Origin: a virus
Length of the DNA stretch: 64,000 nucleotides
Virus record (IMG/VR): IMGVR_UViG_3300044712_000792
Coordinates: 1 to 64,000 of that record
Reading direction: 5' to 3' (one strand)
Positions 34,308-64,000 of this stretch are shown here, in pieces; positions within the stretch are counted from its first letter, which is position 1, and the number at the start of each line of letters is the position of its first letter. The notes beneath the pieces are model-generated. The model worked only from the letters and a program-made list of their open reading frames with translations, did no database searches and had not been told where the DNA came from. Position numbers and translations under genes: made by a program.

Positions 34308-34381
34308 AGGCGGTTGGTGAAATAGTATCACAGATGGCTTTGACCCATCAGTCGTTGGAGCGTAACCAGCACCGCCTGCCA
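34308..34381 (+). tRNA. trnQ: tRNA-Gln(UUG) with encoded CCA
   Basis: Acceptor AGGCGGT/ACCGCCT, D stem GTGA/TCAC, anticodon stem GATGG/CCATC with loop CTTTGAC, T stem GTTGG/CCAGC, 3' G-CCA. Confidence 0.9.
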
Positions 34382-41451: not shown

Positions 41452-44400
41452 ATGGTCAAATTAATAGAGGCAGACATTCCTGTTAGAATATTGCTTTCTG
41501 AAGCTAAATTGAGAGATGTATATGAACAATATAAGCTAACAGATGAAGAAAAACTGTATTTTAACCAAATCATTGAAAAACAAAGACATTTACAAAAATA
41601 TATGCCACACATAATAAAATTCATCAAAGAGGATGGGTATGCCCCAAGTGTAGTCTTTGAGATATTCAATCTGTTTGAAAAATACAAAGATGTTGTCCCA
41701 CATAAAGACTTTATGGATGCTAAATATTATTCTACGCTTTTAGACTTTAGACAAGCAATAAAAGTAGCACAAAGAGAGAAAAAAGCAGCTGTAATTGGTG
41801 GAGTAAACCCTAGTGTTGTTGAACGAATTGAGAATGGATTAAAACAGTTTTCAACAACAACATTTCTAGTTTCTGAAACAGACGAATATTGGGTTATTTA
41901 TATTGGGTCGTTTCCAGCTAGTGTTTATTTCTGTGAAGAACCTAGAAAACAGACATCAAAACTCGGTGGACCTCCTTGGTGTATTGGAGCCCAAGAAGGC
42001 AATTACAATAACTACCATCGTGATTACAAATCGTGTTTTTTGATTCAACCCAAAGATGGATATATGAAAAGCACCATTTTCTATGCTAGTGCTACCGCTC
42101 TTGAAAGAACAGATATTATGAACACAATGCATTATGATGAAGGTCCCTGGCATGGTGTCCTTAAGGTAATCAGAGAAAATGAAATGGTGAAAAAGATTTG
42201 GGAGGTTAGAAGGGCGCAGCCTAGTCTTGCTATAAAAGATGTATCATTTTTTGTTATATCTGGTATTCCTGTTGGGACAGATTCTATGAAAACAATTGAA
42301 ACGCTAATAGAAAAAGAAGGAATAACTTTAACAAAAGATGAATGGGAGGAAATAAAGAAAAGTCCACAAACAGTTCTATCAAGAATATCATCTTGTCCTA
42401 GTAATAAAGGGTTTTTTTATTGGATAGCTTATGCTGGTATTTGGCCAGAGTATTATGACATTTATTGTAAGGGTAGTGCTAAATTGTATGATTCAAAACT
42501 ACCATTCAAATTGAAAGTAGACTTGGTGAAAGCAGGGTCAAATTATGGAACACATTTAATGTATTCGTTTGGGACATTAATGAGCAAACTTGGTGACATT
42601 AAAGTTGATGATTTTCTTGACGAAGCAACCGTTGCCACACTATTCAACGAGTACAAGAAAGACAATAATAACACTTTAGAACTATTGTCACAACTTAATT
42701 TTGATACAAAGGAAGAAAAACTTATTGATTTCATAAGATTCGCTGTTGCCCACCCAAAACTTCTTCGTTCCCCAGCTACAGCTAATAGTATATTTCATGA
42801 TGCTAATGCCCATCTTGCCCATTTTACAGCAAATTTAATGCTTCAAACACTACAACTGTTAGAAAAAAAGGTTAAAATATCCGATATACTAAAAAAATTA
42901 GTTCCAGAAACAGATTATGAAACAAAAATTATAGCATATAATTCTATGGGTTTACCTGCTTGGGAGATGACACAAGAAAATTTAGTAAACGGTAGCATAG
43001 AGGCTGTCGCAGAGATAGAAAAGAATCGTGCAACCCTAAAGAAAGGTTATAGTATAGAGTATTTGAAATTGTATGTGTTTACATATCCAGAGTTACTCCC
43101 AATACTATTATCGGAACACAATTATGCTCAAACATTTAAGAATTTCTACAATATTACCGCAGAAACTAGAGATAAATTTGTTAAATTTTATGTTTCTATA
43201 CCTCAATCTTATAGAGATTTGTTTGAGAAAATACTTACCGATATTGGGTACACTACTGATACGGCATTAGTAGAATCGTTTATGGAAGCTTATAAAGCAG
43301 ATGCCTCATTTTTGGATGAAAAACAGATATACACAATCTTTAAACACGCTATTAACAACTATGGTAATGGTTATTTTTCTTGGATTAACGGCCCTTTACA
43401 ACAGTTATTTACAGACCCAGCAGTTAAAAACCCTATGAGTAACGCTATAAATTTTTACCCTAGAATATTTAGACCTATTGAAGGAACAGCTAACTTCAAA
43501 AAAATAATACAACAATATAATAGATTTCAAGATGCTGTGCGTTATGCTTCAAGTCATGATGTTAGACCAAGTTCAAGAACTTGGGGTAATAATTTAACTT
43601 TTGAAATGTTGCAAATGTATACAGACCAGCAACTTACAAATATGTATATGCTAACAAATTATCTTTCATTTAGCCCAGACAACGAAACTACTCAAGAAGT
43701 CATATATATGTTTTCTAATGAAGTAGTTGCTGCATTTGTAGCATCTAACCCAAAGATAAAAGATATTAATAAAGTAGGTCTAATATTTTTCAATTTAAAA
43801 AAACTATTGAAAACAGAAGAAAAAATGTTAGAATACTTAAAATCAAATGTGGTTAATGATGTTATAGCTGATTGTGATTCTCTTGAAGCTCTGGAAACAC
43901 TTGGTAAGTTTGGTGCGTTCCTTATAGCTGCAAATAAAGAAAAGTTTGAAAAATTCCTAGCCGAAACAAAAGAGTGGAGTTCTGGGCTTATAAAGTATCT
44001 TTTAGCTTTTCAATATGGCACTTTAGATAATGGAGTAATAGATGCAATTTTAAGGCATAAATCGGTTTTTGAAGAAGCGTTCAAAACTAGTACTTTTAAG
44101 GATTTCCCAAATTCGTTAGTCCAACAAGCCTATAATATGTTTTCTTATAATGTTTATCATGGTGGTGGTCTGTCTAATGTTGAAACTATTAAGCTATTCC
44201 TTTCTATGGATTTTAAGAATTTAATAGAACCATTAGACCTAGCAAAGCAAAACAATTTATGGAATTGGATGGCGTATGCTGTTGGTAGGACTTCTTCATA
44301 TAGCAGTAGTATGCCTACTGTTGGTTCTCCTGCTGCGGTAACATCAATAACTAAATTACAAGAAATGGCATTCAAATTACCTAAACTAATAGCATTAGCA

Positions 44401-45645
44401 AAGCAATTAACCCGAATGGAAACATTAAAACGTCAAGATGGTGGGGTTAAAAGACTTTATACCAATATTGATTACATTTTAGCTTTTAGCGAAACCTTGG
44501 AGATAGGGAAAATCCTTTTTGATGGTGTATATGATACCCCTACTATAGATAAAAAATTTGCTAAAGTGGCGAGCCTTAACTTAAAACACCCCGGATATGC
44601 TATGTTACATATGCTACACGGAGTAATAAAGGCAGAAGTACTAAAAAGTTTAGATGAATATATGCCAGCGATTATGACAATACTTAAATGGGATTATGCA
44701 AAACTACAAAATTTGTTGGGTAAAATAAACATATCTGATATAGCAGAAGCTTCACAGAACAATACACTAGAAGAACTCTTGTCAAACCAAGAATACATAC
44801 ACATAACCTTACCAAATTGCTTGTATGATTTACTCCAATTTGCGGAAGATGGCGATTATCATTACGGAATAGCTATAAATGCTATACCAGAGGTTGGTAT
44901 TGCAACCTATTCAAACACAGAAGTATCGTTGGTGGCTTTACATAAAACTATTAAATCAAAATCTATTGTAGTAATTTTAAAAAATCATAGGTTTGTTTTA
45001 CCTAATAGGAGTAAGGGTAGAAAATCTAGTGATGTTAATATTGTTATTGAAAAATTTAAGGCTAGTATTTCTGATGTAAAGTTTTTTGATAAGTTTAATG
45101 ACGATAAGTATAGTGGTCGCATTGAATTAATCAAACATTTAGTTCCAGATAATAGTCAAGAAATAGATAAAGTAGTATCTCATATTTTATCTACTTGGGA
45201 TAATTCAATGAAAGGACTTGGCAGGAAAATACAGGTATATGTTATGTTTTATGGGGATTCTAGTGGTATTACGGTTAATAAGTTATTGGTAGATTTTATA
45301 GAGGCGAATCTTAATGCAGGGTTTTTGGGTAGCCTTCTAAATGCATATAATTACTATATGCCAACCATTTCAAAAGAGAAAAAAACAAGGTTCTGGTATA
45401 TAGCAGGGTTGGCTTGTGTGTTTGGTGTTAAAAACAATATTGATGTCGCAAAAATAAGTGGATGGACACCAGTCCTTTCACAATTAAAAATGGCTAGTTT
45501 GACATTTGATTTAAAGGATACAATTAAACAGATATTCAATTTGCGAGTTCCGTTACTAACTTCAATAGAGAAGTTAGAAATATCATCAAGTAACAAGCAT
45601 GCATTAAAAACTCTTATGAATTTAGAAGGTATAGAACAATGGTAA
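41452..45645 (+). CDS. Giant hypothetical protein, paralog 1 of 3 (N-terminal WCIG domain)
   Basis: 1397 aa; colinear similarity to the next two ORFs. Confidence 0.85.
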   Translation: MVKLIEADIPVRILLSEAKLRDVYEQYKLTDEEKLYFNQIIEKQRHLQKYMPHIIKFIKEDGYAPSVVFEIFNLFEKYKDVVPHKDFMDAKYYSTLLDFRQAIKVAQREKKAAVIGGVNPSVVERIENGLKQFSTTTFLVSETDEYWVIYIGSFPASVYFCEEPRKQTSKLGGPPWCIGAQEGNYNNYHRDYKSCFLIQPKDGYMKSTIFYASATALERTDIMNTMHYDEGPWHGVLKVIRENEMVKKIWEVRRAQPSLAIKDVSFFVISGIPVGTDSMKTIETLIEKEGITLTKDEWEEIKKSPQTVLSRISSCPSNKGFFYWIAYAGIWPEYYDIYCKGSAKLYDSKLPFKLKVDLVKAGSNYGTHLMYSFGTLMSKLGDIKVDDFLDEATVATLFNEYKKDNNNTLELLSQLNFDTKEEKLIDFIRFAVAHPKLLRSPATANSIFHDANAHLAHFTANLMLQTLQLLEKKVKISDILKKLVPETDYETKIIAYNSMGLPAWEMTQENLVNGSIEAVAEIEKNRATLKKGYSIEYLKLYVFTYPELLPILLSEHNYAQTFKNFYNITAETRDKFVKFYVSIPQSYRDLFEKILTDIGYTTDTALVESFMEAYKADASFLDEKQIYTIFKHAINNYGNGYFSWINGPLQQLFTDPAVKNPMSNAINFYPRIFRPIEGTANFKKIIQQYNRFQDAVRYASSHDVRPSSRTWGNNLTFEMLQMYTDQQLTNMYMLTNYLSFSPDNETTQEVIYMFSNEVVAAFVASNPKIKDINKVGLIFFNLKKLLKTEEKMLEYLKSNVVNDVIADCDSLEALETLGKFGAFLIAANKEKFEKFLAETKEWSSGLIKYLLAFQYGTLDNGVIDAILRHKSVFEEAFKTSTFKDFPNSLVQQAYNMFSYNVYHGGGLSNVETIKLFLSMDFKNLIEPLDLAKQNNLWNWMAYAVGRTSSYSSSMPTVGSPAAVTSITKLQEMAFKLPKLIALAKQLTRMETLKRQDGGVKRLYTNIDYILAFSETLEIGKILFDGVYDTPTIDKKFAKVASLNLKHPGYAMLHMLHGVIKAEVLKSLDEYMPAIMTILKWDYAKLQNLLGKINISDIAEASQNNTLEELLSNQEYIHITLPNCLYDLLQFAEDGDYHYGIAINAIPEVGIATYSNTEVSLVALHKTIKSKSIVVILKNHRFVLPNRSKGRKSSDVNIVIEKFKASISDVKFFDKFNDDKYSGRIELIKHLVPDNSQEIDKVVSHILSTWDNSMKGLGRKIQVYVMFYGDSSGITVNKLLVDFIEANLNAGFLGSLLNAYNYYMPTISKEKKTRFWYIAGLACVFGVKNNIDVAKISGWTPVLSQLKMASLTFDLKDTIKQIFNLRVPLLTSIEKLEISSSNKHALKTLMNLEGIEQW

Positions 45646-48600
45646 AAAAACTTATTACCGAAGCTAGATTAAGGGATGTTTATACCAAATACAACTTGAC
45701 TGACGATGAAAAAACCTATTTTAATAAGGTCATTGAGAAGCAAAAATTTATGCAGAAGTATATGCCACAAATTGTCAAATTCGTCAAACAAGATGGGGAA
45801 GAAGCAGATTTTGTTCTTGATGTATTTAATACATTTGAAAACTACAAGGATAAGGTTGAACATAAGGACTTTTTAGACGAGAAGGCTTACCCAGATTTGT
45901 ATTCGTATAGGGCTGCTGTTAAAAACTTTATGACCACAAAACGAGTAGCATCAAATCCTATCAGAGAAAATGTTGAAAATGGGCTAAACCAATTCAGCAC
46001 AACAACTTACCTTGTTAAAGAAACAGATAATTTTTGGCTTATTTATATAGGTTCTTTTCCAGCTAGTGTGTATTTCTGTACAGAACCAAGAAAAGTAACG
46101 GGTCGTCTAGGAGGCTCACCTTGGTGTATTGGTGCTAATGAAAGTAACTATAATGGTTATCACGATGGTGGCAATTTGTGCTTTATTGTAATGTTTAAAG
46201 ATACATACGATAAAAGCACCATTTATTATGCAAATAGAAGTGGGTTTACTAGAACAGACATTATGAACCACGCATACAATACTGATGCTGGTACTATTTG
46301 TGATGGTGTTTATCAGATTATAAAAGCAGACCCTATGGTAAATAAACTGTGGGATGCTAGAAATAAAGTGGGTAACTCAATACCAATAAGTTTTGTGTCT
46401 TCTTTTGTTTTAGCTGGAATGGAAGTATCTTCAGATAAGAATTTGTTATTAGATGCTGTTTTGAAGAAGCACAATATTCAACTTAATGGGGAAGAATTAG
46501 ACCTATTAAAAAGAAGGTTTAGTATCTCTGCTACAACTGTTTTGAATTATATGAGTGAAGCCCCTACTAAAGAAGATTATTGGCATTGGGTTAGAGTGTC
46601 AGCAACAATGCAAGGCCAGGGCCTACTAGTAAGTCGTAATTTGAGTAAGCTATTGTATAATTCAAAAGTTCCATTTTCAGTTAAGAAAAAAATAGCAAGA
46701 GCTCCAGATGGTGGTGCCCCTGATATGTGGTATAGATTTTCATATCTTATATACCCCTTAAATATAGATGACCTTGATTCTTTGTTCCCTGGTGATTTGC
46801 TATCAGAGTTTATTGAGGCTACTACGCCAACTTTAATGAGAAATGAGATTTTTAATTGGTTTTATGCGAGTGCTGGACTTGAATTTTCAGAGTACAAAAA
46901 AGAAGAACTTATTGGATTACTTGAATTTATTAAAACAAATCCTTCCTTCGTTTCTGCAATTCTTGGTAGTATCAGTAAATTTAGCAAATTTACTGTTGGG
47001 TTATTGCTACAAGCGTTTAATCTTTTATTGAAAAAAGAAGCAAATGTTGATACTATGTTAGATAAGCTAGTTCCTTCTACAGAATATGAAACTAAAATAT
47101 TAGAGATATTGAAGATAGGTTCGTTAAGCACTTGGAAACTAACAAAAGAACAAGTAATGGCCGCCGATTTGGAAGTATTAAAACAAGTAAATGAAAAAGC
47201 AAATATAGATATAATTGTACAATATGGACTATCTCAATCTGCAATTAGATATCTTACACTTAAATACCCTAAAATTATAACAATACTAAAAGAAGCACAT
47301 AAATTTCTTTACAACACAGGTTTTATTGGTGGACAGGGGGAAGAAGAATTTATCACAGGATTATTAAAATTCCCACCAGAACAAATACGGGAGTTTAACA
47401 AAGCATTTGAATCAACAGGCTATTCTATGGATAATGGAATTGCTTATTGTTTGGGTTGTTTATTCAAATCTGATATAAGCTTTTTATCCCCAGAGTTACA
47501 AATTAGTTGTGTGCGCTGGACAATAAATAGCTATGGTAATGAATATTTTTCTTTCAGTAGAGGCTTGTTAAGGAATGTGCCATTTTTTCCAAAACAGAAA
47601 GAGGTTACACTACTCCCTAACATATTTGACCAACCTATTATGATGTTCAAACCAGCAGAAGGAACTGCCAATTTTAAAAAGATTCTAGCCAACTATGAGA
47701 AATTTCTTAATGCAATTTTTTATGTTCAATCTAGTGGTTTGACATTAAACTATCAGACAGAATTTTTTAGGTCTATGTCATATGAAACCCTCTCAATGTA
47801 TTCAGAATACCAATTAACAAATCTATTTTTGTTATCACCTTATCTATCAAATCAACAAGAAAATGATGAGACCAAAGATGTAGCTTTAAAATACTCTAGA
47901 AGATTAATACTAGCATTCTTGAAAAGCCTACCACGAATCTCAAATATAAACCATGTTGGACCTTTACTTAACAAATTAAAGGGTTTGTTGGGCACAGAAG
48001 AAAAAATGATTGAGTTTATGAGTAGCCATTCTATTAGCACTAATATGATTCACTTGAAAACTATAGAGCAAATGGAAAAACTATCTAGATATGGTATGTT
48101 TAATTTAACAGCTAGTTATGAGAATATGGAAGCCTTTTTTTCAGAAACAGAAGATATATATGTTGAAGTGGCTAGATATATGAAATTGTCAGGCATTTCA
48201 GAACTAAACAATTCGGTTATTACAGAAGCATTAAAAACTATTGGATTGTTCAGAACTGAAGTTAAAAAAAGCAACTTTTTGAAGCTATCTCCGATAAACT
48301 TTAATGCCGTAAACGCTTTTTGGTTAAATATGGTGTATAAAACAAATTCTAATTATATTTGGCTAACTGAACATATTAGCTTATTTTTCAGTATGGATTT
48401 TGAACGCCTAGACCGTATGGCACCAGAATTTGTTAAACCAAACGCTTTTGCTGGTTGGCTACAAAGTTTCTATAATGGTGGGAATCTTTGGAATGCTGGG
48501 GACGAGAAGGCAAAATCTGCAATAGAAAATGCCTTAAATTATTTAGAATCCGTAATGCCAATCAGAGAGATGTTTAAAAAGTTGGGTGTGACAAATTATT

Positions 48601-49856
48601 CAAATGATGGGTCTTCTGGGGCTTCTAGGGTATTAAAATATGGTAAATTTCTATTAGACACCTGGGAAAACGATAAAGTAACTACAACCATCATTAAAAA
48701 TATACACGCAAATTCTTATTCTACATCTTGGATGCCAATTGTTGAAAAACTTCTTCCACAATTAAAGCACCCTAGTTATGCCTTTCTACCGCTTATCTTT
48801 TCTGGTGATGTAACTACCGAATCCATAATAAAAATTAATGACATTATGCCAATTCTTGTGGAAAAAACTAACTATGACTATTCTAAACTTTTCTCTTTGT
48901 TACAGCATTTGACTACTGAAGAGATAAAAGAAGCTATTGCTAATAACACATTTGATGATATTATTGATATTACAAATTATAGAAAAATTATATTACCTAG
49001 TTGGCTTGGGGGTATAACAGTAATAAGTGAAACAGATGATTTTATCTATGGTATTGCCTTCAAAACGCTTAATCCACTTATCACACACCCTTCAACAAGA
49101 GATAAAATAAATCTTGTTGCAATACACAAAAGTTTACCAAATAAAAGCGTATATGCTATTTTGGAAAACCATGTTATTACCTTGCCTGCTGGAAGCACAA
49201 TAGACCCAATAGACCTTCAGCCTTTGATTAAAGAGTTCAAACATATGTTAAGTCAAGAACATATCATTAAGAAGTTGATTTCAGCAGGTTACCCTTCTTA
49301 TATTAGTGCTATATACCCTAACGACTTGGCAACAAAAGAAAGAATATGTAAATTTATCTTCTCCAATAGTCTTAACAACAACTTTATGATTGATATGGCT
49401 AACAAAATTGCTCTGTATATTTCTATGTACTACAAAAGTGGAGAACTCGAAATAAATAAAATGCTAATGGACTATTTAGAAGGATTGGTAACTAGAAGTG
49501 ATGCCCCAAGTGGACACATTGACACTATGCTAGGTGGTAGTCAATATTATAAGCCAAATATGGAGTCTTCTAAAAAAACACTCTATTGGTTTGTTTGTTG
49601 TCTTGCTATACTGTTGGGCATTAAAAACGGCATAGACATACGAACTAGAACTGCGTTTGATAACTATTATAACTACTTAAGGCCTAGTTTTCTTACTATG
49701 GACGGTAGAAGTATAATAAAGGATATGTTTGACCTTAAACCTCCCATTTTAGATTCAATAGATAACTTGGTTCTCCCGGGTAACGAAGATACAAATACCC
49801 ATAATAAAGGCGTCATTAAAATGCTTTTGGGCTTGGAAGGAATTAAAGAATGGTAA
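45639..49856 (+). CDS. Giant hypothetical protein, paralog 2 of 3
   Basis: 1405 aa; YIGSFPASVYFC, PWCIG, EGTANFKKI and LKHP shared with paralog 1. Confidence 0.85.
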   Translation: MVKKLITEARLRDVYTKYNLTDDEKTYFNKVIEKQKFMQKYMPQIVKFVKQDGEEADFVLDVFNTFENYKDKVEHKDFLDEKAYPDLYSYRAAVKNFMTTKRVASNPIRENVENGLNQFSTTTYLVKETDNFWLIYIGSFPASVYFCTEPRKVTGRLGGSPWCIGANESNYNGYHDGGNLCFIVMFKDTYDKSTIYYANRSGFTRTDIMNHAYNTDAGTICDGVYQIIKADPMVNKLWDARNKVGNSIPISFVSSFVLAGMEVSSDKNLLLDAVLKKHNIQLNGEELDLLKRRFSISATTVLNYMSEAPTKEDYWHWVRVSATMQGQGLLVSRNLSKLLYNSKVPFSVKKKIARAPDGGAPDMWYRFSYLIYPLNIDDLDSLFPGDLLSEFIEATTPTLMRNEIFNWFYASAGLEFSEYKKEELIGLLEFIKTNPSFVSAILGSISKFSKFTVGLLLQAFNLLLKKEANVDTMLDKLVPSTEYETKILEILKIGSLSTWKLTKEQVMAADLEVLKQVNEKANIDIIVQYGLSQSAIRYLTLKYPKIITILKEAHKFLYNTGFIGGQGEEEFITGLLKFPPEQIREFNKAFESTGYSMDNGIAYCLGCLFKSDISFLSPELQISCVRWTINSYGNEYFSFSRGLLRNVPFFPKQKEVTLLPNIFDQPIMMFKPAEGTANFKKILANYEKFLNAIFYVQSSGLTLNYQTEFFRSMSYETLSMYSEYQLTNLFLLSPYLSNQQENDETKDVALKYSRRLILAFLKSLPRISNINHVGPLLNKLKGLLGTEEKMIEFMSSHSISTNMIHLKTIEQMEKLSRYGMFNLTASYENMEAFFSETEDIYVEVARYMKLSGISELNNSVITEALKTIGLFRTEVKKSNFLKLSPINFNAVNAFWLNMVYKTNSNYIWLTEHISLFFSMDFERLDRMAPEFVKPNAFAGWLQSFYNGGNLWNAGDEKAKSAIENALNYLESVMPIREMFKKLGVTNYSNDGSSGASRVLKYGKFLLDTWENDKVTTTIIKNIHANSYSTSWMPIVEKLLPQLKHPSYAFLPLIFSGDVTTESIIKINDIMPILVEKTNYDYSKLFSLLQHLTTEEIKEAIANNTFDDIIDITNYRKIILPSWLGGITVISETDDFIYGIAFKTLNPLITHPSTRDKINLVAIHKSLPNKSVYAILENHVITLPAGSTIDPIDLQPLIKEFKHMLSQEHIIKKLISAGYPSYISAIYPNDLATKERICKFIFSNSLNNNFMIDMANKIALYISMYYKSGELEINKMLMDYLEGLVTRSDAPSGHIDTMLGGSQYYKPNMESSKKTLYWFVCCLAILLGIKNGIDIRTRTAFDNYYNYLRPSFLTMDGRSIIKDMFDLKPPILDSIDNLVLPGNEDTNTHNKGVIKMLLGLEGIKEW

Positions 49857-52800
49857 GAAAACTTATTACCGAAGCGTCTCTTAAAGAATGGTATGCTAAA
49901 TTTGGCGTTACTGCTGATGAAAAAGCTATTTATGATGATATAATAGCTAAACAACCATATATGCAAAAGTATATTGGCAGAATTGTAAAATGGCATAAAG
50001 TTGATAGAGAAAAGCTAAAGGATATTATTGACAACCTAATCAAGTTTGATGAGAACATTAAGAATATTGCAGATAGAGATATATACTCAAAGAAATATGA
50101 GTTCCTAGATGCAGTAAAAGAAGTCATTGAGAACCTACCAAAATGGTTTGATAGGCTTAATATACCGAAAGAGTTTGAGAAGATATTGGCAAGACACCCT
50201 AAAGATGCCTTTAAACTCACAGAAACAGCCGATTACTTCGTGTTCTATATAGGGTCATATGATGCCTCTACCGACCTTTGTTATTACCCAAGGCTTTATA
50301 CTGACTATTTACTATCAATTCACACTCCTAGCACAAATAATGGTTGGTGTATAGGACAGCCTAATACTAGAGGCTTCTTTGACGGACAGAGGGGTTCAGA
50401 TGGGTTATATTTCCTAGTTCAATATAAGACCACTTTCAAAAAAAGCTGTATCTATATTCTTCATTCTGATGGTAGTTTCCGTAGGCATAATGTCCATAAT
50501 TACCCTGGTAGTGGTTTTCCTGATGAACAAGAACCTGGTATAATGAAGATGGCATTTGACGACGAAAGGATAGTGAAAATATTTGCGGAACAAAAAAGGT
50601 ATGCTTATCGTATGATTATAGATTTCATCTCTTGGAAAGTTATTGGTGGTATGGAAATCAAAAGTGATTTTGATGTATTACTAAATGTCCTAAATGACAA
50701 ATATCAACTTGGTTTGACGGATGAACAAAAAGCAAAATTAAAAGATTTTAATGCAACATTAAACTCTGGTGCGTGGACATCTTCTAGAAACATAATCAAT
50801 AGAATTTCGGCACATCCCAAGATAGAAAGATATTTCTTATGGATGTCTGCTGGTTATGGCGATTATACTTTAGACAAACCAGTAATGGCGTATTTTGAAA
50901 TGATTTATAAGTGTAAAAACCTTACTAATGATATGAAACAGCAACTTACTAATAGACCTGCTGGACACATTAAATTAAACCAAGATATTACCTATGATGA
51001 CCTTATAGCTAGCCCAGAAACTCAAATACCTGTAGATAACTTAAAAGACTTTTACAGTTTTGTTCTACCATATATAGACAAGAGTGATAAAACTAATCTA
51101 CCTAAAGCGGTTTTACTTTATAATAAACTTATTGGGGAGGGTAGAAGGGATAAATTTATTGATGATAGTGGTCGTTTTATGGTTAGAGGACTTAATGTTG
51201 ACTTGTTAATTTCTTTATTTGAAGCTGTTCTAGAAAATCCAAGGATACTTTTTAAGACTTGGGCTAAAGAAACAACCCCAAACAATGACTATGAAAACAT
51301 TATACTTGAGATTATAAGAAAAGATTTGTTTAGAGGAAAGCCTTTAACCCCAGAAGTTATTAAAGCACTTGATATTTCAATGATTGATTCTATGAAAGAG
51401 AAACTAGGAACAGTATTTTCAAGTACAAGTATGATTAATGACGCCTTATATTTCTTTTGTTTATTCCCACAAACTTCAGATAATTATAAGATATTTTCTC
51501 ATATAGCAAGAAATTACCATGATGTTCCTTATGAGGATATGAGAGATTTGTTGAATGTTTTGACACCACAACAAATAAAAGAATTCAATTATTGTTTAGA
51601 CCCAGACCATTTTGGATATACTTACGATAAAGATATGATGAGAAGGATATATGTTATCTTTGGTGCTGAACAAAAAGAGTTCCCCACAGATGTAACAAGG
51701 CGTTTGATGCAAGCAGGTTTAACTAAAAGTAATGGGAGTTGTTTTGCAATTGCTTGTAAAGAAATATTAGGAATGACCACCACAGCCTCATCAGTTTTAA
51801 ATACAACATTAAACAATAGTCCTATGGAATATATAACAGTTAATACATATAAAAGGGCTAAAGTTGTTGCAGAAAAGATTGTTGGTTCTTTGAGTTTAAT
51901 CCCCGGCACTATTTCCTTTAGGTTTAGTAGTAACTGTAGCTTCTTTAATATTGACAATGTGTTAGCATTAAAAGAGCAAGAATTGGCTAATGCTATAATC
52001 TATTCTAGCGGTATTCCAGGGGAATCAGTTTATTTAATGCCGTTCTTGAGAGAGTTTTCACCTGAATTTATTGCTACACTAATAGATTTACAAAATAATA
52101 GTTTGGATATAGAAGACTATTATGTTGCTCTAGAGGTCTTCTTGAACTTAAAAAAGATACTAGTTGAAGAAGAAAAAATATTAAAATTTTTAGGGACAAT
52201 AAATAGACTTGATAGTTCCTTATTGCTAGCAAGTACTGTTGAAGAATTAGAACAAGCAAAATTGTTTGTTGGTATTGCTATGTCTTTCCCAGATGTAGAG
52301 ACAAAGAAAACATTATTGAAGGCTATTGCTGGTGCTGAAAAAGAATTGTTATTTGCCTTTAAGGTTCACAGTCTAATACTAACGAAAGAAGTTATTGACC
52401 TGTTCTTAAGCAAAAAAGAGGAGTTAATAAAAGCATATAACAATAACTTCATTTTCAATTGTGAGTATAGTGGAGATAAAGCTAAACAGAAAATATCCCG
52501 TTTTTTTATGCCTATGATTAATACATATTTACACAATTTTTGGACAAACTACTATAATCCAGAATACATAAATGCATTAAATAACTTTGATTTTGAAAAA
52601 ACATATCCTATTTTGATGAGTATATGTGGTGGTTCAATAAGGAATTCTTCTTGCCCTCTAATTAGTGCTTTTGTCCCTGGCACTGGAACTTTAGTCGGAA
52701 CACTAGAAAAAAACCTTAAAAAATATGAAGAATTTGTATTAACACAAGCAGAGAAATTGAATGTATTAATTAAAAACTCAAAATTCAGCGGTATATTACT

Positions 52801-53980
52801 TACTTCTGGTGATAGGAATACTTATAGAGTGATAAAATATGCGGATTGGATTATAACATATTCTGATACTACAGTAATTAATACTGTGTTATATTACATT
52901 ATGTATAGTACACAAAGTTCTATAGATGACACCATTAATTTGCTTGCAACGGCTGGAATTAAGCATCAAGGCTATGCCGTACATCACACCATCCGACCAT
53001 ATCTTGATAATATAGAACTCATTAAAGGTCTTGATAGCTTCTTACCAGAGATATTCAAAGAATTTAGTTTCTCATATGATTCAGACACAGAAAAAAGTTC
53101 AATGTTTGCACAATTATTACGAACAAAAACAGCACCAGAAATTATAGAAATTATCAAAGAAAAGGGTGCTGTTGAAAAGGCTGTAAGAGAATCAGCACAA
53201 AAAAGCTATAACGAAGCCATTAAGGAAACATTAAAGGGTAATGTGATATTTAAGGAAACAAATGAGAATCTGTATGTTTATAGGTTGGCTACTTCAAACA
53301 ATTTGATATTTAAAAAGCATGCTGGTAGCTTGCCAGATATTTCACAAGAATATTTTTCATTTATGATTGTAAACAAGGAAAACGAGATTGAGAATTGTCA
53401 TTATCAAATGGGTTCAGATTTAAGACTTAAGCAAACATCTAACACAGCTTGTTCTGTTTCTGGGGATTTGAAAACATCTTTTATAGAATGGGCACAAACA
53501 CCAGAAGGTTTTAGTATAGTGTTAGCAACCCCAATAAGAAGCGATGTGTTTATGGCTGTGTATGGCAATAACAATGAACTAGTTATGGAAAAAATGCTAG
53601 CTTTAGAACTCTATGTTTCTGTTAGCTTTGATGATTGTATGTCAATATTCCAGTTGATAAGAGGACAAAAAGTGGTGGATGATGAATTGATGAATTACCT
53701 TATGGAGAAGGCTGATGTTAAACAGACATATAGAAAGGCTACTGATGGATTGCCTAACAAAGCATTTTATGTTGATTGTGCTGTGATTTGTTGTATAGCT
53801 AGGAACGACGCTAGTACTAATATTGATGATGTTAAAACGGCATTATCACCAAGAACTGATTTTGATGCAATAGCAATGAAGGTATTTGATGTGCCAGAAA
53901 TAACAAATGCTGTCATAGATGGATTACACCTTGACGATGACCACAAGGCTATGTTAAGAAAAATGAGAGCTAACTTTTAG
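49850..53980 (+). CDS. Giant hypothetical protein, paralog 3 of 3 (more divergent)
   Basis: 1376 aa; LITEA, MQKY, YIGS, WCIG, IKHQGYA. Confidence 0.85.
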   Translation: MVRKLITEASLKEWYAKFGVTADEKAIYDDIIAKQPYMQKYIGRIVKWHKVDREKLKDIIDNLIKFDENIKNIADRDIYSKKYEFLDAVKEVIENLPKWFDRLNIPKEFEKILARHPKDAFKLTETADYFVFYIGSYDASTDLCYYPRLYTDYLLSIHTPSTNNGWCIGQPNTRGFFDGQRGSDGLYFLVQYKTTFKKSCIYILHSDGSFRRHNVHNYPGSGFPDEQEPGIMKMAFDDERIVKIFAEQKRYAYRMIIDFISWKVIGGMEIKSDFDVLLNVLNDKYQLGLTDEQKAKLKDFNATLNSGAWTSSRNIINRISAHPKIERYFLWMSAGYGDYTLDKPVMAYFEMIYKCKNLTNDMKQQLTNRPAGHIKLNQDITYDDLIASPETQIPVDNLKDFYSFVLPYIDKSDKTNLPKAVLLYNKLIGEGRRDKFIDDSGRFMVRGLNVDLLISLFEAVLENPRILFKTWAKETTPNNDYENIILEIIRKDLFRGKPLTPEVIKALDISMIDSMKEKLGTVFSSTSMINDALYFFCLFPQTSDNYKIFSHIARNYHDVPYEDMRDLLNVLTPQQIKEFNYCLDPDHFGYTYDKDMMRRIYVIFGAEQKEFPTDVTRRLMQAGLTKSNGSCFAIACKEILGMTTTASSVLNTTLNNSPMEYITVNTYKRAKVVAEKIVGSLSLIPGTISFRFSSNCSFFNIDNVLALKEQELANAIIYSSGIPGESVYLMPFLREFSPEFIATLIDLQNNSLDIEDYYVALEVFLNLKKILVEEEKILKFLGTINRLDSSLLLASTVEELEQAKLFVGIAMSFPDVETKKTLLKAIAGAEKELLFAFKVHSLILTKEVIDLFLSKKEELIKAYNNNFIFNCEYSGDKAKQKISRFFMPMINTYLHNFWTNYYNPEYINALNNFDFEKTYPILMSICGGSIRNSSCPLISAFVPGTGTLVGTLEKNLKKYEEFVLTQAEKLNVLIKNSKFSGILLTSGDRNTYRVIKYADWIITYSDTTVINTVLYYIMYSTQSSIDDTINLLATAGIKHQGYAVHHTIRPYLDNIELIKGLDSFLPEIFKEFSFSYDSDTEKSSMFAQLLRTKTAPEIIEIIKEKGAVEKAVRESAQKSYNEAIKETLKGNVIFKETNENLYVYRLATSNNLIFKKHAGSLPDISQEYFSFMIVNKENEIENCHYQMGSDLRLKQTSNTACSVSGDLKTSFIEWAQTPEGFSIVLATPIRSDVFMAVYGNNNELVMEKMLALELYVSVSFDDCMSIFQLIRGQKVVDDELMNYLMEKADVKQTYRKATDGLPNKAFYVDCAVICCIARNDASTNIDDVKTALSPRTDFDAIAMKVFDVPEITNAVIDGLHLDDDHKAMLRKMRANF

Positions 53981-57817: not shown

Positions 57818-58290
57818 TTTTTCAACTCTTTTTTTCTTTTAGCACCGAGTTCTACCAATTTCTCCCTAACTTGTTCAATATCATGTTCTCTCCACCCTGC
57901 TGGTAAATCGTGATACATAATATCTAAAGGAGTTGCATTCACATCATTGCTTACATTATTAACATTTAATCCTATTCTTTTAGCGTTATTTAACAAGTAC
58001 AAAGTGAATTCCAAGTTAGCTTTGTACAACGACCAACTTAATACGGTATTGCCTCCAAGAGTTCTTTGGTTGACAGCTAACTTTAATTTGTCAGCACTAT
58101 CTATCAATAACATAGCAAATTTGGTTCTGTATCTGTCTATACAAGAAACAAGTATTGGCTGGCCAAACTGTAAACCATATTCATTAACATTTATACCACT
58201 TTCAACACACATAATAAACTTATATATGTTATTATTAATAATGGCTTCGTGTAAATCGTATAAGTTATACTTATACTCCTTTATTTTCAC
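57814..58290 (-). CDS. Ankyrin-repeat protein
   Basis: VESGINVN, GNTVLSWS, ATPLDI, LVELGAK. Confidence 0.85.
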   Translation of the reverse strand: MKIKEYKYNLYDLHEAIINNNIYKFIMCVESGINVNEYGLQFGQPILVSCIDRYRTKFAMLLIDSADKLKLAVNQRTLGGNTVLSWSLYKANLEFTLYLLNNAKRIGLNVNNVSNDVNATPLDIMYHDLPAGWREHDIEQVREKLVELGAKRKKELKK

Positions 58291-61200
58291 TTATATCTCC
58301 AACACAAATACTTGTTGCATAACTTGATATTCTCCTTGGTATTTCGGGAATAAGACCACCTTTATTATGTTCTCTCCTGCTATTAAATAAGAGATAAGGT
58401 CTATTGTGGTGGACATACTAGTATGTAGCTTACTCAATGAACCAAATGTACCACTAGCAAATAGGTCTACATCATTAACAAAAACTGAAATATTCTTGAA
58501 AATACCTTGTTCTATTGAGTTCACATATAGAACTTCTCCTAATATAGAGAATACACCAAGACATTGTTTCGGTTCATTAATTGTAACAGGAATCCTAGTC
58601 AATCCTCCAAGTTTTCCATACCACTTTCTATTATAGAAGCCGTCCTTATCTACAAACAAGCAATCTCCTTCTGCTGGAACTTTTAAGTAAATGCTTCCAG
58701 AGAAAGAAGTTGTGCCGTAGTTCTTTTGTAGATTTACCATATTCAAATATGAGTTCTTAATCATAGTATATGAATCGGAAGTATCTACAAAATATCCATT
58801 CTTCCATTTGTTCATACCCCAATAATCTTCAATATCGCAATAATAGACAGCAGACTGATTGCTTCTAAATGACAATACGCCATCATAGACATTGTTAAAT
58901 TCTATTGTAGTATTTGGTTCAACATCAATATATGAACCTGAAATTTCTATTACAGACCCATTATACATATTTGCAGATGAAAGAACAACACTATCCTTAA
59001 GTATCTCACCAGTTACGATATAACTAGATGTATCTACTGTAGCTGTTATTACAAATGTTTGGGTTGTTCCAATACTGGTGATAGTTTTCGTAAGAGCTAA
59101 AGGTGTTATAGTTGTAGGGCTAGGACTTATTGTATCATAGCCTGCGGTTGCTGTTCCAGTTCCAGATATTCTAATTAAATTACCAGAAACACTAGGAATT
59201 CCAACTACTGTGAAAAATGCTACTGTTCCACTTAATGTAGTCGTAAGAGTTCCTGTTGCGGCTGTTGTTCCTATTGTGTAAGTATCCCCTGCTGTGGCTT
59301 CCATAGTCCCTGTTGTCGTTATAACATAGCTACTTGTTGTTGCTGGATATGTGAACTTATAGCCATTCTTAACAGCCTTAAAAGTATAAGCCCCAGGATT
59401 TAATGTGAAATTGGCTAATCCGCTAGTATTTGTCCTAAAAACACCAACAACATCATCTGTATTATAATGTGATAACTCTGAAACCAAATCAACATTTTCT
59501 ATTGGATTGGCACTAGCGTCAACAACAGAGATTACACCAGAAGCTGCACTAGTCAAAACATTAGCTGTTATAGTTACTCCTTTATCTGTATTTGTATTGA
59601 CTGTTATAGGTGCGGGCTGTGGAGTTCCATCTATGATAAAGCTATAATAATTCGTTTGTGTTGGGTAGACAAAACATTGTAAGGTATACACATTAGCATC
59701 TTCCACATCAATACTGAAATTACCCGTGGCTGTGGTAGTATCTATTTTAACATATCTATTAAAATCAACTGTGCCAGAATCATTGGTTTTGCTTATGATA
59801 TGGACATAGGCGTTTTTACCTATACCAAGACCATTAACAACACCAGATAGAGTTACTATGTTTGATGCTGAAGAAGGTGCTGTAAAGCTGTAAGTAGTAT
59901 TAGCACCATTAACATATACATCCATAGAAACCGGATAAGCACTAACATCTGTTACGAGTTTGTATAGCCCGTTTTCTGCTGTAATAGTATATGTTCCATT
60001 TCTTGATGTTAAGCTAAAATTGTTTGCCTCATAAGTAGTAATACCTGTTGCTTGTGATGTATCGTAATAGCTTGATTTATAAGACTTTGTAACAGTATAA
60101 TCTACCGAACTTATTGTGGCACTTGAACCTTCCCAAAGACTATCACCCCAAGCATCATTATCTATTTCTGGTGCTACAAATAATACTGTCTTACCATCAC
60201 AAGGTTTATAATCCAAAATCCTATGTGTTGGTGAAAGTCTGTCTGATTGTGATAATTGGAAATAAGGTATGTAAGTAGTATCATAACTTGATGCTGCTGT
60301 TGAATGAACTCCTAGAATTCCTGTTTTAAAATCAACTTCAGTAACGGTAGAAGAATCTCCGGCGGCATTACAAGTTGCGGTTATAACCATAGTTTCGTTT
60401 TTAGGTATCATTGGAACTACTGTTGTTCCTGTTGACATAATCCTATAAAATTCAGCACCACTATTATTTGGAGTTCTGAAAAACATTACTTTATCCCAAT
60501 CGGCATTTGCAGTTACAGTCAATGTAGCAGAGAAATTACTAGCAGCAGTAATAGTTGCTGATTGTATTAGTTCTGATATACCACCACTTGCATACATAAC
60601 CATATACCCAAATCTATAACTACCAGCCACTATGTTTCCACCAGTAGCAGTTGTAACTTGTAATGTAGCTGTGGGTTTTATTGGAACATAGAAATTGCTA
60701 TCCAATGTTAAGTTTGAAATTGTGGTATCTAGAACATCTCCATATTTAGTAAATACTCCAATCATTGGCATATTGGGTGCTATAAACACATCTTTAGCCC
60801 AAGGATAGGTCAATGCCAAATTCTTTCCATATATCTTGTAGTCATTATAATCCAATTCAAGGACAATATCATCAAAATAGAATGGTCTAAAAGTTGCTAT
60901 CGTTGCAGTTCCATCTATTGTTTCAGCAGTATTATATGTTAGTATAGTTTCAGTCCCAGAAGGTGTAGCACTTGTTAAATCAATTAATTGCTTTCTTGAA
61001 TCTTGTAAATAATAATTTATTATGTCTATATCAAGTGGTTGGTCTATTGTAGCTTTGTTGTATGGGGTTGTGTCGTCTAAAGTTAATGTGACTGGTGTTG
61101 TTAAAGATACTTCATAATTCGCATTTACATTAGAGTCTGGTTCTGGTAAACATTCTATTAATTCACTTGTTTCGCTTCTCCACTTCTCCTTATAATCAAA

Positions 61201-62328
61201 ATCAACTTCAAGCAATCTTAATGTAGATTTTAGGCTTGATACTCTTCCTTTTAGTTTAAGTAATGGGAATAAATATCTAGCTTGCCAACGCCATATTTCA
61301 GAGTTTTGAGTTAAAGTACTCCAACCCAAATTTCTTAACAAGTAAGGAAGCCAACCATCAGGACATTCTAAATAATCAATTAGTGCTAATAAATCCCCAT
61401 CTGTATATACGCCTTGATAGAAAGTTGTTACGCTATCCCAAAAGCCATTTAGGTGTTGGTAGTTATCTGTTTCTTTATAGATTGAAGGGATATACCTAAA
61501 CATTTGTTTCTTGAACTTATAGTATTTCCCAAAATCATCATTATATGAAATTGTCTGTAAAGGCATTTCTGTTTCACCAGAAGTAGTAAATGGTTCATAT
61601 GCTGGTGAATATGCGTAAACACTTACAGGACAACCAGTTTTCCAAGTGTGGTTAGTAAGGACATTTAATACTCCGCTTTGTGGCGAAGTAAATACAACAT
61701 CAAAAGTTGTAGTGTTATCAACAATCGTATATGTAGCAGACAATTCTTTACCATAGAAATCCGTTATAGTAAGACCGAAATATTGATTGTAGGCAAAGTC
61801 AATAGTCCAAGTTGCTTCTGCTGTGTTCTGCGTATGTTCGTGAATTGACACACTTGCAGAAGAAAAATATGTCATACTGTTATTAAGGAAGTCATAAGGA
61901 GGTGTGACATAAGTAGGGTAAATAACTTCAAGACTATATCTGCTAATCTTCTGAACCCTATAGATTTCAGCACCTATTAAGGCTACAAAATCAACAGGCA
62001 TATTTGAAGTATCTGTATAAATGATTGTGTCACCATTTACAAAGTCATCAGTCAAATAAGTAACTGGAACAAAATCTCCTTCTACTTTGAAATAACAGAT
62101 TGGGGCATATCCAGTTGTCCCTGGTATCATACGCCAAGCATATTCATCTGTGGCATCAAGTTCAGAGTATAGAACATACTTTTCTGAATAATACATCTCT
62201 TCATCATACATTTTTAAGTAACCTGTTGCTGGAAGCTTTTCTATATCTTCTTCATACAACACAGCCATAATGTTGCTTTTATGATAAACAAGAGTAAAAT
62301 TCTTTTGAGTAATTTCTATTGCATTCAT
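58291..62328 (-). CDS. Large baseplate wedge/tail protein (P2 gpI/T4 gp7-like core plus Ig-like domains)
   Basis: CPDGWLPYLLRNLGW...LKLKGRVSSLKSTLRLL; Thr-rich beta domains; VVDASANPIENV...TNTSGLA...GAYTFKAVKNGY. Confidence 0.75.
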   Translation of the reverse strand: MNAIEITQKNFTLVYHKSNIMAVLYEEDIEKLPATGYLKMYDEEMYYSEKYVLYSELDATDEYAWRMIPGTTGYAPICYFKVEGDFVPVTYLTDDFVNGDTIIYTDTSNMPVDFVALIGAEIYRVQKISRYSLEVIYPTYVTPPYDFLNNSMTYFSSASVSIHEHTQNTAEATWTIDFAYNQYFGLTITDFYGKELSATYTIVDNTTTFDVVFTSPQSGVLNVLTNHTWKTGCPVSVYAYSPAYEPFTTSGETEMPLQTISYNDDFGKYYKFKKQMFRYIPSIYKETDNYQHLNGFWDSVTTFYQGVYTDGDLLALIDYLECPDGWLPYLLRNLGWSTLTQNSEIWRWQARYLFPLLKLKGRVSSLKSTLRLLEVDFDYKEKWRSETSELIECLPEPDSNVNANYEVSLTTPVTLTLDDTTPYNKATIDQPLDIDIINYYLQDSRKQLIDLTSATPSGTETILTYNTAETIDGTATIATFRPFYFDDIVLELDYNDYKIYGKNLALTYPWAKDVFIAPNMPMIGVFTKYGDVLDTTISNLTLDSNFYVPIKPTATLQVTTATGGNIVAGSYRFGYMVMYASGGISELIQSATITAASNFSATLTVTANADWDKVMFFRTPNNSGAEFYRIMSTGTTVVPMIPKNETMVITATCNAAGDSSTVTEVDFKTGILGVHSTAASSYDTTYIPYFQLSQSDRLSPTHRILDYKPCDGKTVLFVAPEIDNDAWGDSLWEGSSATISSVDYTVTKSYKSSYYDTSQATGITTYEANNFSLTSRNGTYTITAENGLYKLVTDVSAYPVSMDVYVNGANTTYSFTAPSSASNIVTLSGVVNGLGIGKNAYVHIISKTNDSGTVDFNRYVKIDTTTATGNFSIDVEDANVYTLQCFVYPTQTNYYSFIIDGTPQPAPITVNTNTDKGVTITANVLTSAASGVISVVDASANPIENVDLVSELSHYNTDDVVGVFRTNTSGLANFTLNPGAYTFKAVKNGYKFTYPATTSSYVITTTGTMEATAGDTYTIGTTAATGTLTTTLSGTVAFFTVVGIPSVSGNLIRISGTGTATAGYDTISPSPTTITPLALTKTITSIGTTQTFVITATVDTSSYIVTGEILKDSVVLSSANMYNGSVIEISGSYIDVEPNTTIEFNNVYDGVLSFRSNQSAVYYCDIEDYWGMNKWKNGYFVDTSDSYTMIKNSYLNMVNLQKNYGTTSFSGSIYLKVPAEGDCLFVDKDGFYNRKWYGKLGGLTRIPVTINEPKQCLGVFSILGEVLYVNSIEQGIFKNISVFVNDVDLFASGTFGSLSKLHTSMSTTIDLISYLIAGENIIKVVLFPKYQGEYQVMQQVFVLEI

Positions 62329-62331
62329 CTA

Positions 62332-63399
62332 TTATTTCCTTGCTTTAAGTATTATATTACGTTGCCTTACTGATGCATGTTCTTTTCCGTATTTTGTGAG
62401 TTTAGCCCCATTGTTTATTAAAATGTCAATAAGGTTATCATAACCCTGATATATTACCCAATCCAACAATGTCTTACCTTCATATTTTGTATTTACATCG
62501 CCACCGTTTTTCAGCATTATTGAAAGTGCCCAACTATTTGTGTTTGTTATAACTAACTTTGTTAATAGTGGTTGACTACCAACCTTCATATTAGGTATGT
62601 CTACCCCATTGGTTTTAGCGGTTTTAACAATATTTTCAATAATAATAACAGGTAAATAATGCACAAGAAGATAATAAAATTCCATTGGAAATTTTGCCGC
62701 TAAAAATGCGTATACTTGTTCTGGCACTTCTTCCAAATTATCCACACCATCAACATAGTTATTTCTATCAAAGAATAAAACACTTTCATCGCTAGATATG
62801 TTAATAAAATACATAGTATAAAGGTCTTTTTTGTTTTGACATAGAATCAAATGTTCGTCTTGGTCTTGAACATATTCATAAAACCAATTTCTATCAACAT
62901 CAGGAATACCAATACAAAAAGCACTAACCTTTTTATCACTAGACTTTTTAGCATATTCCCTTTGTGGTTGCCCAAAAAAGATAGCAGCTTCAGGCTTAAA
63001 CAGGTCTATAAAGTAATAATCTTTTGTTTCAAATAACAACTTTGCTTCAGATGGAAATTTCTTAAGTCCAATACCCACAAAATCAGCAGGACTTTTAAAT
63101 TTGTTAAGCTGTTCAAGAATTTTTTGTTCTGCTGTCTTGAAATCAGAATACATTTTGTTGCTTATATCTTTAACTAAAAGCTTTGGGTTGTTCTTGTTTT
63201 GTTCCAATACTTTTATGAAATCAGTTATATTGTCCATTTCAATCTTTTGCGTTTTATGCCATTCAGCAATCCTAGCAAAATATTTATGCTGAATACCAGT
63301 TGGGTCCAGGTCCTCATATAAACTAATTTCTCTAGGAGTTAGGTTAAACTTCTTAATAGCATTTTTTACAATTGCGGATTCTACTATGTATTGTTTCAT
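62332..63399 (-). CDS. WCIG-domain (giant-protein N-terminus homolog) fused to ankyrin repeats
   Basis: HKYFARI..WHK, LFETKDYYFI, FCIG; C-terminal LKNGGDVN...GKTLLD...LINNGAK. Confidence 0.75.
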   Translation of the reverse strand: MKQYIVESAIVKNAIKKFNLTPREISLYEDLDPTGIQHKYFARIAEWHKTQKIEMDNITDFIKVLEQNKNNPKLLVKDISNKMYSDFKTAEQKILEQLNKFKSPADFVGIGLKKFPSEAKLLFETKDYYFIDLFKPEAAIFFGQPQREYAKKSSDKKVSAFCIGIPDVDRNWFYEYVQDQDEHLILCQNKKDLYTMYFINISSDESVLFFDRNNYVDGVDNLEEVPEQVYAFLAAKFPMEFYYLLVHYLPVIIIENIVKTAKTNGVDIPNMKVGSQPLLTKLVITNTNSWALSIMLKNGGDVNTKYEGKTLLDWVIYQGYDNLIDILINNGAKLTKYGKEHASVRQRNIILKARK

Positions 63400-63944
63400 T
63401 CGTCTACCCCTGCGTATTTATCTAACAAATTTCTAATTGGGAAGTAATTAATGTGATTTTTCAGCTCGTCCAAAGAATTATAATCCTCTTCTTCCACAAC
63501 AGCACCATTTTCAAGTAATAATCTAACCATCTCTACATTCATATTCCAAATAGCGAAAGTTAAAGGCCCTGAACCACTCCTATTTTTTACATTAACATTA
63601 CAACCTAAATTGAACATCATTTTTGCTATCTTAAAAATAAGATTCTCGTCATCTTTGTTGACCCCTCGTTTCCCAACCAACATACTTATAGATGTTGCAC
63701 CATCAAGAGATTTCTTGTTTACATTTAGCTTAAGCTCTTTGGCATTACGCAATAACAACATAACTATATCATAATACTGATGTTTTATACAAGTTGTAAG
63801 CAATGTGTTACCCCAATCATTCGGAAGTGAAAAATTTACATCTCCGCCATTTTCTATATAAGTAATTACATCCACTAAACAAGGAAGCCCCTGTAATATG
63901 TTTTTTTGTATTTTGTCTTGTAAAGCCTTATGTTCTTCTGTCAT
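63396..63944 (-). CDS. Ankyrin-repeat protein
   Basis: IENGGDVN, GNTLL, GCNVNVKNRSGSGPLTFAI...VRLLLENGA. Confidence 0.9.
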   Translation of the reverse strand: MTEEHKALQDKIQKNILQGLPCLVDVITYIENGGDVNFSLPNDWGNTLLTTCIKHQYYDIVMLLLRNAKELKLNVNKKSLDGATSISMLVGKRGVNKDDENLIFKIAKMMFNLGCNVNVKNRSGSGPLTFAIWNMNVEMVRLLLENGAVVEEEDYNSLDELKNHINYFPIRNLLDKYAGVDE

Positions 63945-64000
63945 TCCGTTGGCCTATAATATTTTATTACCAAGCTTGAAATCCTTTGTGGGAGATAACT

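Follow-up and report, generated by a model that had tools for sequence, protein, structure and literature searches.

The open reading frame P0001, located on the minus strand at 62332..63399 of the window (by which we mean the whole 64,000-nucleotide stretch of viral DNA analysed here), encodes an intact, conserved member of a modular phage protein family, in which a cysteine-bearing N-terminal domain (the head) is followed by one of many exchangeable tails. In P0001 this tail consists of a few ankyrin repeats, and the protein is laid out as follows.

62332..63399, minus strand: whole ORF of P0001, 355 amino acids plus stop, comprising head domain, linker and ankyrin tail
63379..63399, minus strand: leader MKQYIVE, followed by Ser; either a candidate site for (L/I/V)xE processing or an N-cap to the first helix
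62755..63399, minus strand: head domain, residues 1-215, recognised by BLASTP to paralog 3, by profile search and in an AF2 model
62914..62916, minus strand: codon of Cys162, within the motif S-A-F-C-I-G-I
62581..62754, minus strand: helical linker, residues 216-273, with a low-confidence model (pLDDT 48-67)
62335..62580, minus strand: ankyrin tail, residues 274-355, approximately 2.5 repeats

The window has a G+C content of approximately 34% and is part of an 84,696-bp IMG/VR virus record, the completeness of which was estimated by CheckV to be 41%. The same DNA is present in two rhizosphere metagenome runs, one of which is the probable source, and no RNA runs carrying it were listed in the sequencing-run search. 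A single tRNA gene (tRNA-Gln, anticodon TTG) was found at 34308-34381 on the plus strand, flanked by two large plus-strand genes.

A previous inspection of the letters and translated reading frames (the sequence-only reading) had proposed that the N-terminal part of P0001 resembles the N-termini of three giant proteins of approximately 1400 residues that are encoded in the same window. This homology, which covers residues 1-215, is confirmed, and the head domain is now known from the following additional places in the record.

41452..42150, plus strand: head domain of giant paralog 1 (protein 41452..45645, 1397 aa)
45639..46307, plus strand: head domain of giant paralog 2 (protein 45639..49856, 1405 aa)
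49850..50524, plus strand: head domain of giant paralog 3 (protein 49850..53980, 1376 aa), the best match to P0001 in the window
contig 73084-74067, minus strand, outside the window: fifth paralog P0006, 327 aa, with the motif WCIA

As had been suggested by eye, paralog 3 is the closest of the giants (BLASTP, 25% identity over 224 residues, E = 6e-11), and all the motif pairs that had been picked out are present in this alignment; matches to paralog 1 (E = 2e-4) and paralog 2 (E = 1e-3) are weaker. An HMM built from the three giant N-termini only gives P0001 a score of 49.5 bits, compared with 11.7 bits for the best of 1000 shuffled sequences, so the homology is real and the profile alignment is significant. 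Searching the complete record in six frames revealed the fifth paralog, P0006 (E = 1.8e-16), which has a helical, non-ankyrin tail; a near-orthologue of P0006, P0007 (324 aa), exists in another metagenome. The five head-bearing ORFs sum to 14,595 of 84,696 bp, i.e., 17% of the contig. The giants share only their first ~230 residues with anything else: beyond residue ~240 they are matched by none of the 86 family proteins described below, and their bodies of ~1150 aa (window 41452-53980, plus strand) gave no match among these head-family proteins, in Pfam or in PHROG.

A profile of the five head domains was used to search 1.84 billion representative proteins (E < 1e-3) and retrieved 86 proteins, the closest outside hits being P0007, P0008 and P0009. 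This collection upholds the proposal that the WCIG unit is a mobile domain with swappable, mostly helical-repeat C-termini, because the head is N-terminal (starting no more than 45 residues from the N-terminus) in 66 of the 69 proteins with a full-length domain match, and what follows it is highly variable. Tails shorter than 60 aa, which define stand-alone heads, were observed in 12 of the 69 proteins, tails of 60-300 aa in 29 and tails of 300-1184 aa in 28. The listing of domains fused to the head, which had been put forward as a check, comprises LRV, LRV_2, HEAT, Ank and WG repeats, or no tail at all; Pfam analysis of 83 hits yielded LRV in 14, LRV_2 in 10, HEAT in 9, HEAT_2 in 6, Ank in 2 and WG_beta_rep in 2, and single hits carry HTH domains or a PemK toxin. 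In addition, three metagenomic proteins of ~1600 aa (P0010, P0013 and P0014) contain two head copies each, for example at residues 8-183 and 480-676.

Typical members of the family match PHROGs 17056 and 28193, both of which are of unknown function, and P0001 and its close clade fall below these two models. No match to the P0001 head was found in PHROGs, Pfam or NCBIfam, and NCBIfam and the PDB (by sequence) gave none for the family as a whole; a tblastn search of phage GenBank records with P0001 found no match, and a word-index protein search returned only P0001 itself. The viral contigs that carry the family are often 110-336 kb in length. Five such contigs were checked for copy number with a broader profile, since a narrower one missed known members, and contained 1-3 copies each versus five here, so the present phage shows a marked expansion. 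Other members of the family adjoin ribonucleotide reductase, primase, SbcC or HNH genes; on a 35-kb viral contig (L025:8007-11219), two adjacent members of 478 and 589 aa come right after the gene for the ribonucleotide reductase large subunit.

The family signature consists of K-Y, K-D-I-N..Y, G, W/F-C-I and N.F..Y over a domain of ~200 residues. P0001 belongs to the family by this measure, as it keeps K39, Y40, K77, D78, Y84, G143, C162, I163, N171 and Y176, and the family-conserved K190 is likewise retained. Cys162 is invariant in all 72 aligned family domains, in which Asp78 is conserved at 99%, Tyr176 and Phe65 at 97%, Tyr40 at 94%, Gly143 at 93% and Lys39 at 92%. The Trp that precedes the Cys is 99% conserved in the family and is replaced by Phe in P0001, which also has Leu at the position of Phe65. 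No conserved His was found in the 72-domain alignment.

All statements on the fold rest on predicted models. With a 57-sequence alignment, the AF2 model of the head reaches a pLDDT of ~90 over residues 10-210 (prediction from the single P0001 sequence was uninformative for the head, with a pLDDT of ~35). The model begins its first helix at residue 9 and is composed of a six-helix subdomain (residues 9-114) and an alpha/beta subdomain (residues 119-210), the latter being ordered as strand-strand-helix-helix, the Cys-bearing loop, a short helix and three strands. When the whole P0001 model was compared with the PDB by Foldseek, the head appeared in no row below E 0.03; the models covered the whole protein, and these fold lists were filled by matches to the ankyrin tail and do not represent a head-only search. 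At the sequence level, no solved structure matched the head with either a 5-sequence or a 57-sequence profile, and neither the PDB searches by sequence nor the tail-dominated fold search matched it to a known enzyme or solved structure.

Several weak signals agree on a relationship to PcfJ, and we place the head in a distant branch of a PcfJ-like superfamily, with an N-terminal location, and outside PF14284 itself. P0001 itself has no PcfJ hit even at E <= 0.1 and does not reach the PF14284 gathering score of 25 bits, which pCF10 PcfJ, used as a positive control, exceeds with 148.9 bits. Four family members match the Pfam PcfJ model below threshold (best E = 1.2e-4), including P0024 (22.4 bits), P0034 (19.8 bits) and P0059 (12.1 bits); residues 81-179 of P0024 align to model positions 13-112 with E = 1.2e-4. 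A comparison by hhalign of the 72-sequence head profile with a PcfJ profile built from nine domains (pCF10 and Firmicute phages) gave E = 0.002 at a probability of only 13.7% over 54 columns, with the Cys aligned, and the same head profile against the single pCF10 sequence gave a probability of 8.6% (E = 0.0039). The aligned core runs through a strand, a Pro, a helix ending in (Y/E)G and the motif x2-(W/H)-C-(I/V), and then, via an aromatic residue, into a basic strand. Structure-based comparisons show the same tendency: a fold search of BFVD returned rows named 'PcfJ like protein' (E 3.4e-3 to 0.15), the nearest named cluster to P0001 in the ESM Atlas is PcfJ (0.89), and, of the 30 named clusters closest to P0024, 27 include PcfJ-bearing proteins (17-33% of the members). 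The two domains also differ, in that PcfJ has H-C where the head family has W/F-C, the PcfJ domain is C-terminal in pCF10 PcfJ (residues 287-433 of 447) and in the phage PcfJ proteins fetched whereas the head is N-terminal, and the head possesses an extra six-helix subdomain. The PcfJ prototype belongs to the Enterococcus faecalis plasmid pCF10, and PF14284 is common in Herelleviridae phages. No function for PcfJ or for the head family was found in the searched literature, where papers merely mention the gene. In the pCF10 region NC_006827.2 35873-37983, pcfJ overlaps an AcrIIA9-family gene, annotated as a Cas9 inhibitor, and is also near DpnD/PcfM-family and other small genes, a neighbourhood that hints at PcfJ being part of an anti-defence or establishment cluster.

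The C-terminal part of P0001 is predicted from its sequence to be ankyrin in kind, and it is modelled as stacked helix-turn-helix and hairpin repeats of the ankyrin fold, with vaccinia K1 and Legionella AnkH among the fold matches. Against Ank_2, the full-length protein scores 19.6 bits and the isolated tail 21.6 bits, both below the Pfam cut-off of 27.3. The sequence-only reading had regarded P0001 as a chimera of two families of this phage, the giants and its own ankyrin proteins, and this part of the proposal is not supported, since the head is closest to head-ankyrin proteins found elsewhere. P0008 (35% identity over 168 residues, E = 3e-22) and P0009 (27% identity, E = 2e-15) are both closer to P0001 than any paralog in the same genome; these proteins of 612 and 649 aa, respectively, come from other metagenomes and are organised as an MRLLL(L)E start, a head and an ankyrin-type tail. 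In a maximum-likelihood tree of head domains, the three giants group together (support 100/99), as do P0006 and P0007 (100/99), and P0001 pairs with P0008 (93/93), both being on long branches, with P0009 in the same group. These groupings imply that the paralogs split before these phages did and that the head-ankyrin fusion is an established architecture, older than this genome. The ESM Atlas structure neighbours of P0001 include a 76-member, all-viral cluster of proteins of ~650 aa, 55% of which have Ank_2. A search for related loci yielded none with P0006 or P0009 in viral contigs and none with P0009 in metagenome contigs.

The phage has a private ankyrin family as well, with 13 stand-alone ORFs in the contig that score 107-148 bits with a local HMM. 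By these scores, the P0001 tail lies outside this family: it reaches 18.3 bits with the local HMM (best of 1000 shuffles, 9.3 bits), and the best BLASTP match of P0001 to a local member has E = 6e-4 over 42 aa. Since ankyrin is one of many tails found on the head, the fusion tells little about the local ankyrin genes, which had been thought to act in one pathway with the giants. The local ORFs are 140-200 aa long and occupy 38593-39045, 40158-40688, 57350-57817 (missed by the Pfam Ank models), 57814-58290, 63396-63944 and 63941-64000 in the window; the last of these continues past the window end, and seven further members are located elsewhere on the 84.7-kb contig. Thirteen ankyrin ORFs per 84.7 kb represent an unusually dense expansion for a phage from a rhizosphere sample.

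The genes around P0001 include those of a T4-like tail and baseplate.

37522-38592: tail-sheath-stabiliser-like gene of the T4-like tail module in the right half of the window
40690-41094: gp25-like wedge gene of the T4-like baseplate module
56375-57328: gp5-like hub (Phage_base_V, 31.8 bits)
58291..62328, minus strand: gene for a 1345-aa protein, downstream of P0001 in the same minus-strand operon, in a tail/baseplate-module context
63396..63944, minus strand: stand-alone ankyrin gene, 182 aa, upstream of P0001 (Pfam Ank_2, 39.8 bits; local family HMM, 146.7 bits)
contig 64357-67029, just past the window end: gp6-like wedge gene

The ATG of P0001 overlaps the stop codon of the upstream ankyrin gene (ATGA), an arrangement of translational coupling, and its TAA is separated by a 3-nt gap from the ATG of the downstream 1345-aa gene, which has no family match; this tight minus-strand operon is placed between the gp5-like hub and the gp6-like wedge. 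A similar position was observed in an unrelated 109-kb viral contig (L035:4725-11679), where a family member of 390 aa is found between gp5-like hub/lysozyme and gp6-like wedge genes.

One distant member of the family has been annotated as a virion protein. This is gp205 of phage PA5oct (EST35_0205, QCG76086.1, 482 aa), whose membership is clear by hhalign (99.7%, E = 3.9e-26) and which is annotated in GenBank as 'structural protein, ESI-MS/MS'. In PA5oct, 93 products were detected in purified virions, and non-conserved structural proteins were linked to the baseplate and tail (PMC7318152). The gp205 gene adjoins that of the large terminase, not tail genes, and the gp205 tail is without a Pfam family. 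Its N-terminus (L008:5884-5916) has an 11-residue leader that ends in L-Y-E, is followed by Asp and, in its length and ending, resembles a T4-style capsid-targeting leader.

Short leaders, often amphipathic and ending in (L/I)xE before a small residue, are a feature of most family members. When the 25 N-terminal residues were scanned for [LI]xE[ASGN], the pattern was present in 41 of 58 members (71%), compared with 21% of 243 control ORFs from phages. Residues 5-7 of P0001 read I-V-E, and each of the five paralogs has an L/I-x-E between residues 4 and 18; the leaders of this phage are very short (6-8 residues, 4-5 of them before the motif). (L/I)xE is the type of site cleaved by the T4 gp21 head protease (compare PMC5512222), and a T4-type prohead protease (PF03420) is encoded in four of the five other family-carrying records, among them PA5oct and the two records with a completeness of 90% or more. 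A search of the 84.7-kb contig did not reveal this protease; the contig is 41% complete, and the head module is missing from it. No MuF, portal or other recognised virion-association domain was detected by Pfam or PHROG in P0001 or the giants. The PA5oct annotation, the position in a baseplate operon and the leader with its matching protease all point to virion association.

Considering the above, we think there is close to, if slightly below, an even chance that P0001 is a late, virion-delivered modular protein, in which the repeat tail selects a partner and the Cys head provides a conserved activity or a docking function. The protein would consist of three parts, namely a short (L/I/V)xE leader, a head of ~210 residues with an invariant Cys and a distant relationship to PcfJ, and an exchangeable tail, here of approximately 2.5 ankyrin repeats. 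Because the gene shares a transcript with baseplate genes, the protein would be made late. We infer that it is loaded into the virion, where its leader may be cleaved, and that it enters the host with the DNA; in the host, the protein would engage a partner through its repeat tail, and this partner would be acted on by the head or coupled by it to something else. In the three giants and the 327-aa paralog, the same head would serve with different bodies. However, several observations count against such a role. The mass-spectrometric annotation belongs to a distant member, and mass spectrometry can pick up contaminants; LxE(G/S/A)R might be conserved as the edge of a folded domain and so be merely structural; this partial contig has no protease, and its leaders are very short; other members have ribonucleotide reductase, primase, SbcC or HNH genes as neighbours instead of virion genes; the 12 stand-alone heads imply that the head is not merely a carrier and has a role of its own; and the Cys has no conserved His partner, with no solved structure or known enzyme matched in the above searches.

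P0001 might instead never be packaged and, once expressed in the ordinary way in the infected cell, act in the cytoplasm as an effector or enzyme, with a Cys-dependent enzymatic or docking head and a tail that picks the substrate, which we regard as unlikely while still the strongest of the alternatives. Such a protein would resemble the ankyrin effectors of intracellular bacteria and the poxvirus ankyrin/F-box adaptors. The invariance of the Cys and of several polar residues, the existence of stand-alone heads and the location of many members among DNA-metabolism genes are all in keeping with it, as is the neighbourhood of pCF10 PcfJ, which adjoins an AcrIIA9-family gene among genes of the plasmid-establishment type (the PcfJ signal being weak but repeated). 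On the other hand, the gene is inside a baseplate operon both here and in the 109-kb contig, the PA5oct member is annotated as virion-associated, the alignment shows no conserved catalytic partner such as His, and the tail-dominated fold search brought up no enzyme. The same placement between hub and wedge genes in two unrelated phages, together with the tight coupling to structural genes and the non-conserved baseplate and tail structural proteins of PA5oct (PMC7318152), would also fit a structural accessory of the tail or baseplate, in which the head is the anchor and the protruding part, a giant helical body or an ankyrin tail, serves as decoration or binds receptors. We consider this quite improbable, given that the PA5oct member is beside the large terminase and others are in replication modules, that ankyrin, HEAT and LRV repeats are typical of cytoplasmic proteins and, like HTH tails, unusual for external tail parts, and that stand-alone heads would be without a projecting part.

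Finally, P0001 might be a functionless product of recent recombination in this genome, involving a giant gene and one of the local ankyrin genes, or a decaying remnant. The protein is short, its head is divergent (Phe for a 99%-conserved Trp, Leu for Phe65) and its tail of only ~2.5 repeats is under the Pfam cut-off, yet the head is nearer to P0008 and P0009, which are ankyrin-tailed too, than to the paralogs in the genome, the tail is outside the local ankyrin family (18 bits versus 107-148), and the frame is intact, coupled to its neighbours and complete in the invariant residues. This reading has very little probability in our view, and recent chimera formation was rejected as largely refuted by the affinities of head and tail.

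The closest known systems include PA5oct gp205 and the proteins of PHROGs 17056 and 28193, which have the same head domain and are all from jumbo phages; the gp205 gene is beside the terminase gene, whereas that of P0001 is in a baseplate operon. The internal proteins and Alt of T4 have a capsid-targeting leader that is cut by the gp21 protease after (L/I)xE, and they are then injected with the DNA. The family considered here is similar in its short (L/I/V)xE leader, in its late genes near baseplate genes, in the gp21-type protease of four of the five other carriers and in having one member that is virion-associated by annotation, but there is no sequence relation, and the leader, here a candidate for processing, has only 6-8 residues. 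Poxvirus ANK/PRANC proteins and Legionella Ank effectors combine ankyrin repeats with one small conserved non-repeat domain, as P0001 does with its head, but they differ from it in domain order and partner domain, and the host here is presumably bacterial, with nothing to indicate a eukaryotic target. Polyvalent proteins and MuF-toxin fusions join a conserved module to variable modules, are encoded by late virion genes and are predicted to accompany the DNA on delivery (Iyer et al. 2017, PMC5512222). The P0001 family shares with them the joining of a conserved to a variable module and the late virion-gene setting, but P0001 is without MuF, portal or enzymatic Pfam domains, and its variable part is a binding repeat instead of an enzyme or toxin. 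The study in question makes no mention of PcfJ (Iyer et al. 2017, PMC5512222).

The head domain fronts proteins of 190 to 1650 residues and is reused by phages with many binding tails, in a large family that occurs mostly in big phages and for which no functional study was found in the searched literature. A bolder proposal, which we consider rather improbable, is that the head is a new cysteine-dependent enzyme or docking adaptor, delivered with jumbo-phage DNA and retargeted by its swappable tails (ankyrin, HEAT, LRV, WG and giant helical bodies) to different host proteins, and that the five-copy expansion reflects an arms race with host defences. Such a delivered, retargetable module would be to bacterial viruses what the ankyrin/F-box adaptors are to poxviruses. 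PcfJ-like domains are common on Firmicute conjugative plasmids and phages and have no assigned function; even if its proteins are not delivered in the virion, the present family is a clear target for studying the structure and biochemistry of such domains. If the proteins of this family are carried in the virion and delivered, they would represent a new class of early-acting phage effectors, for which PA5oct gp205 offers a cultured model.
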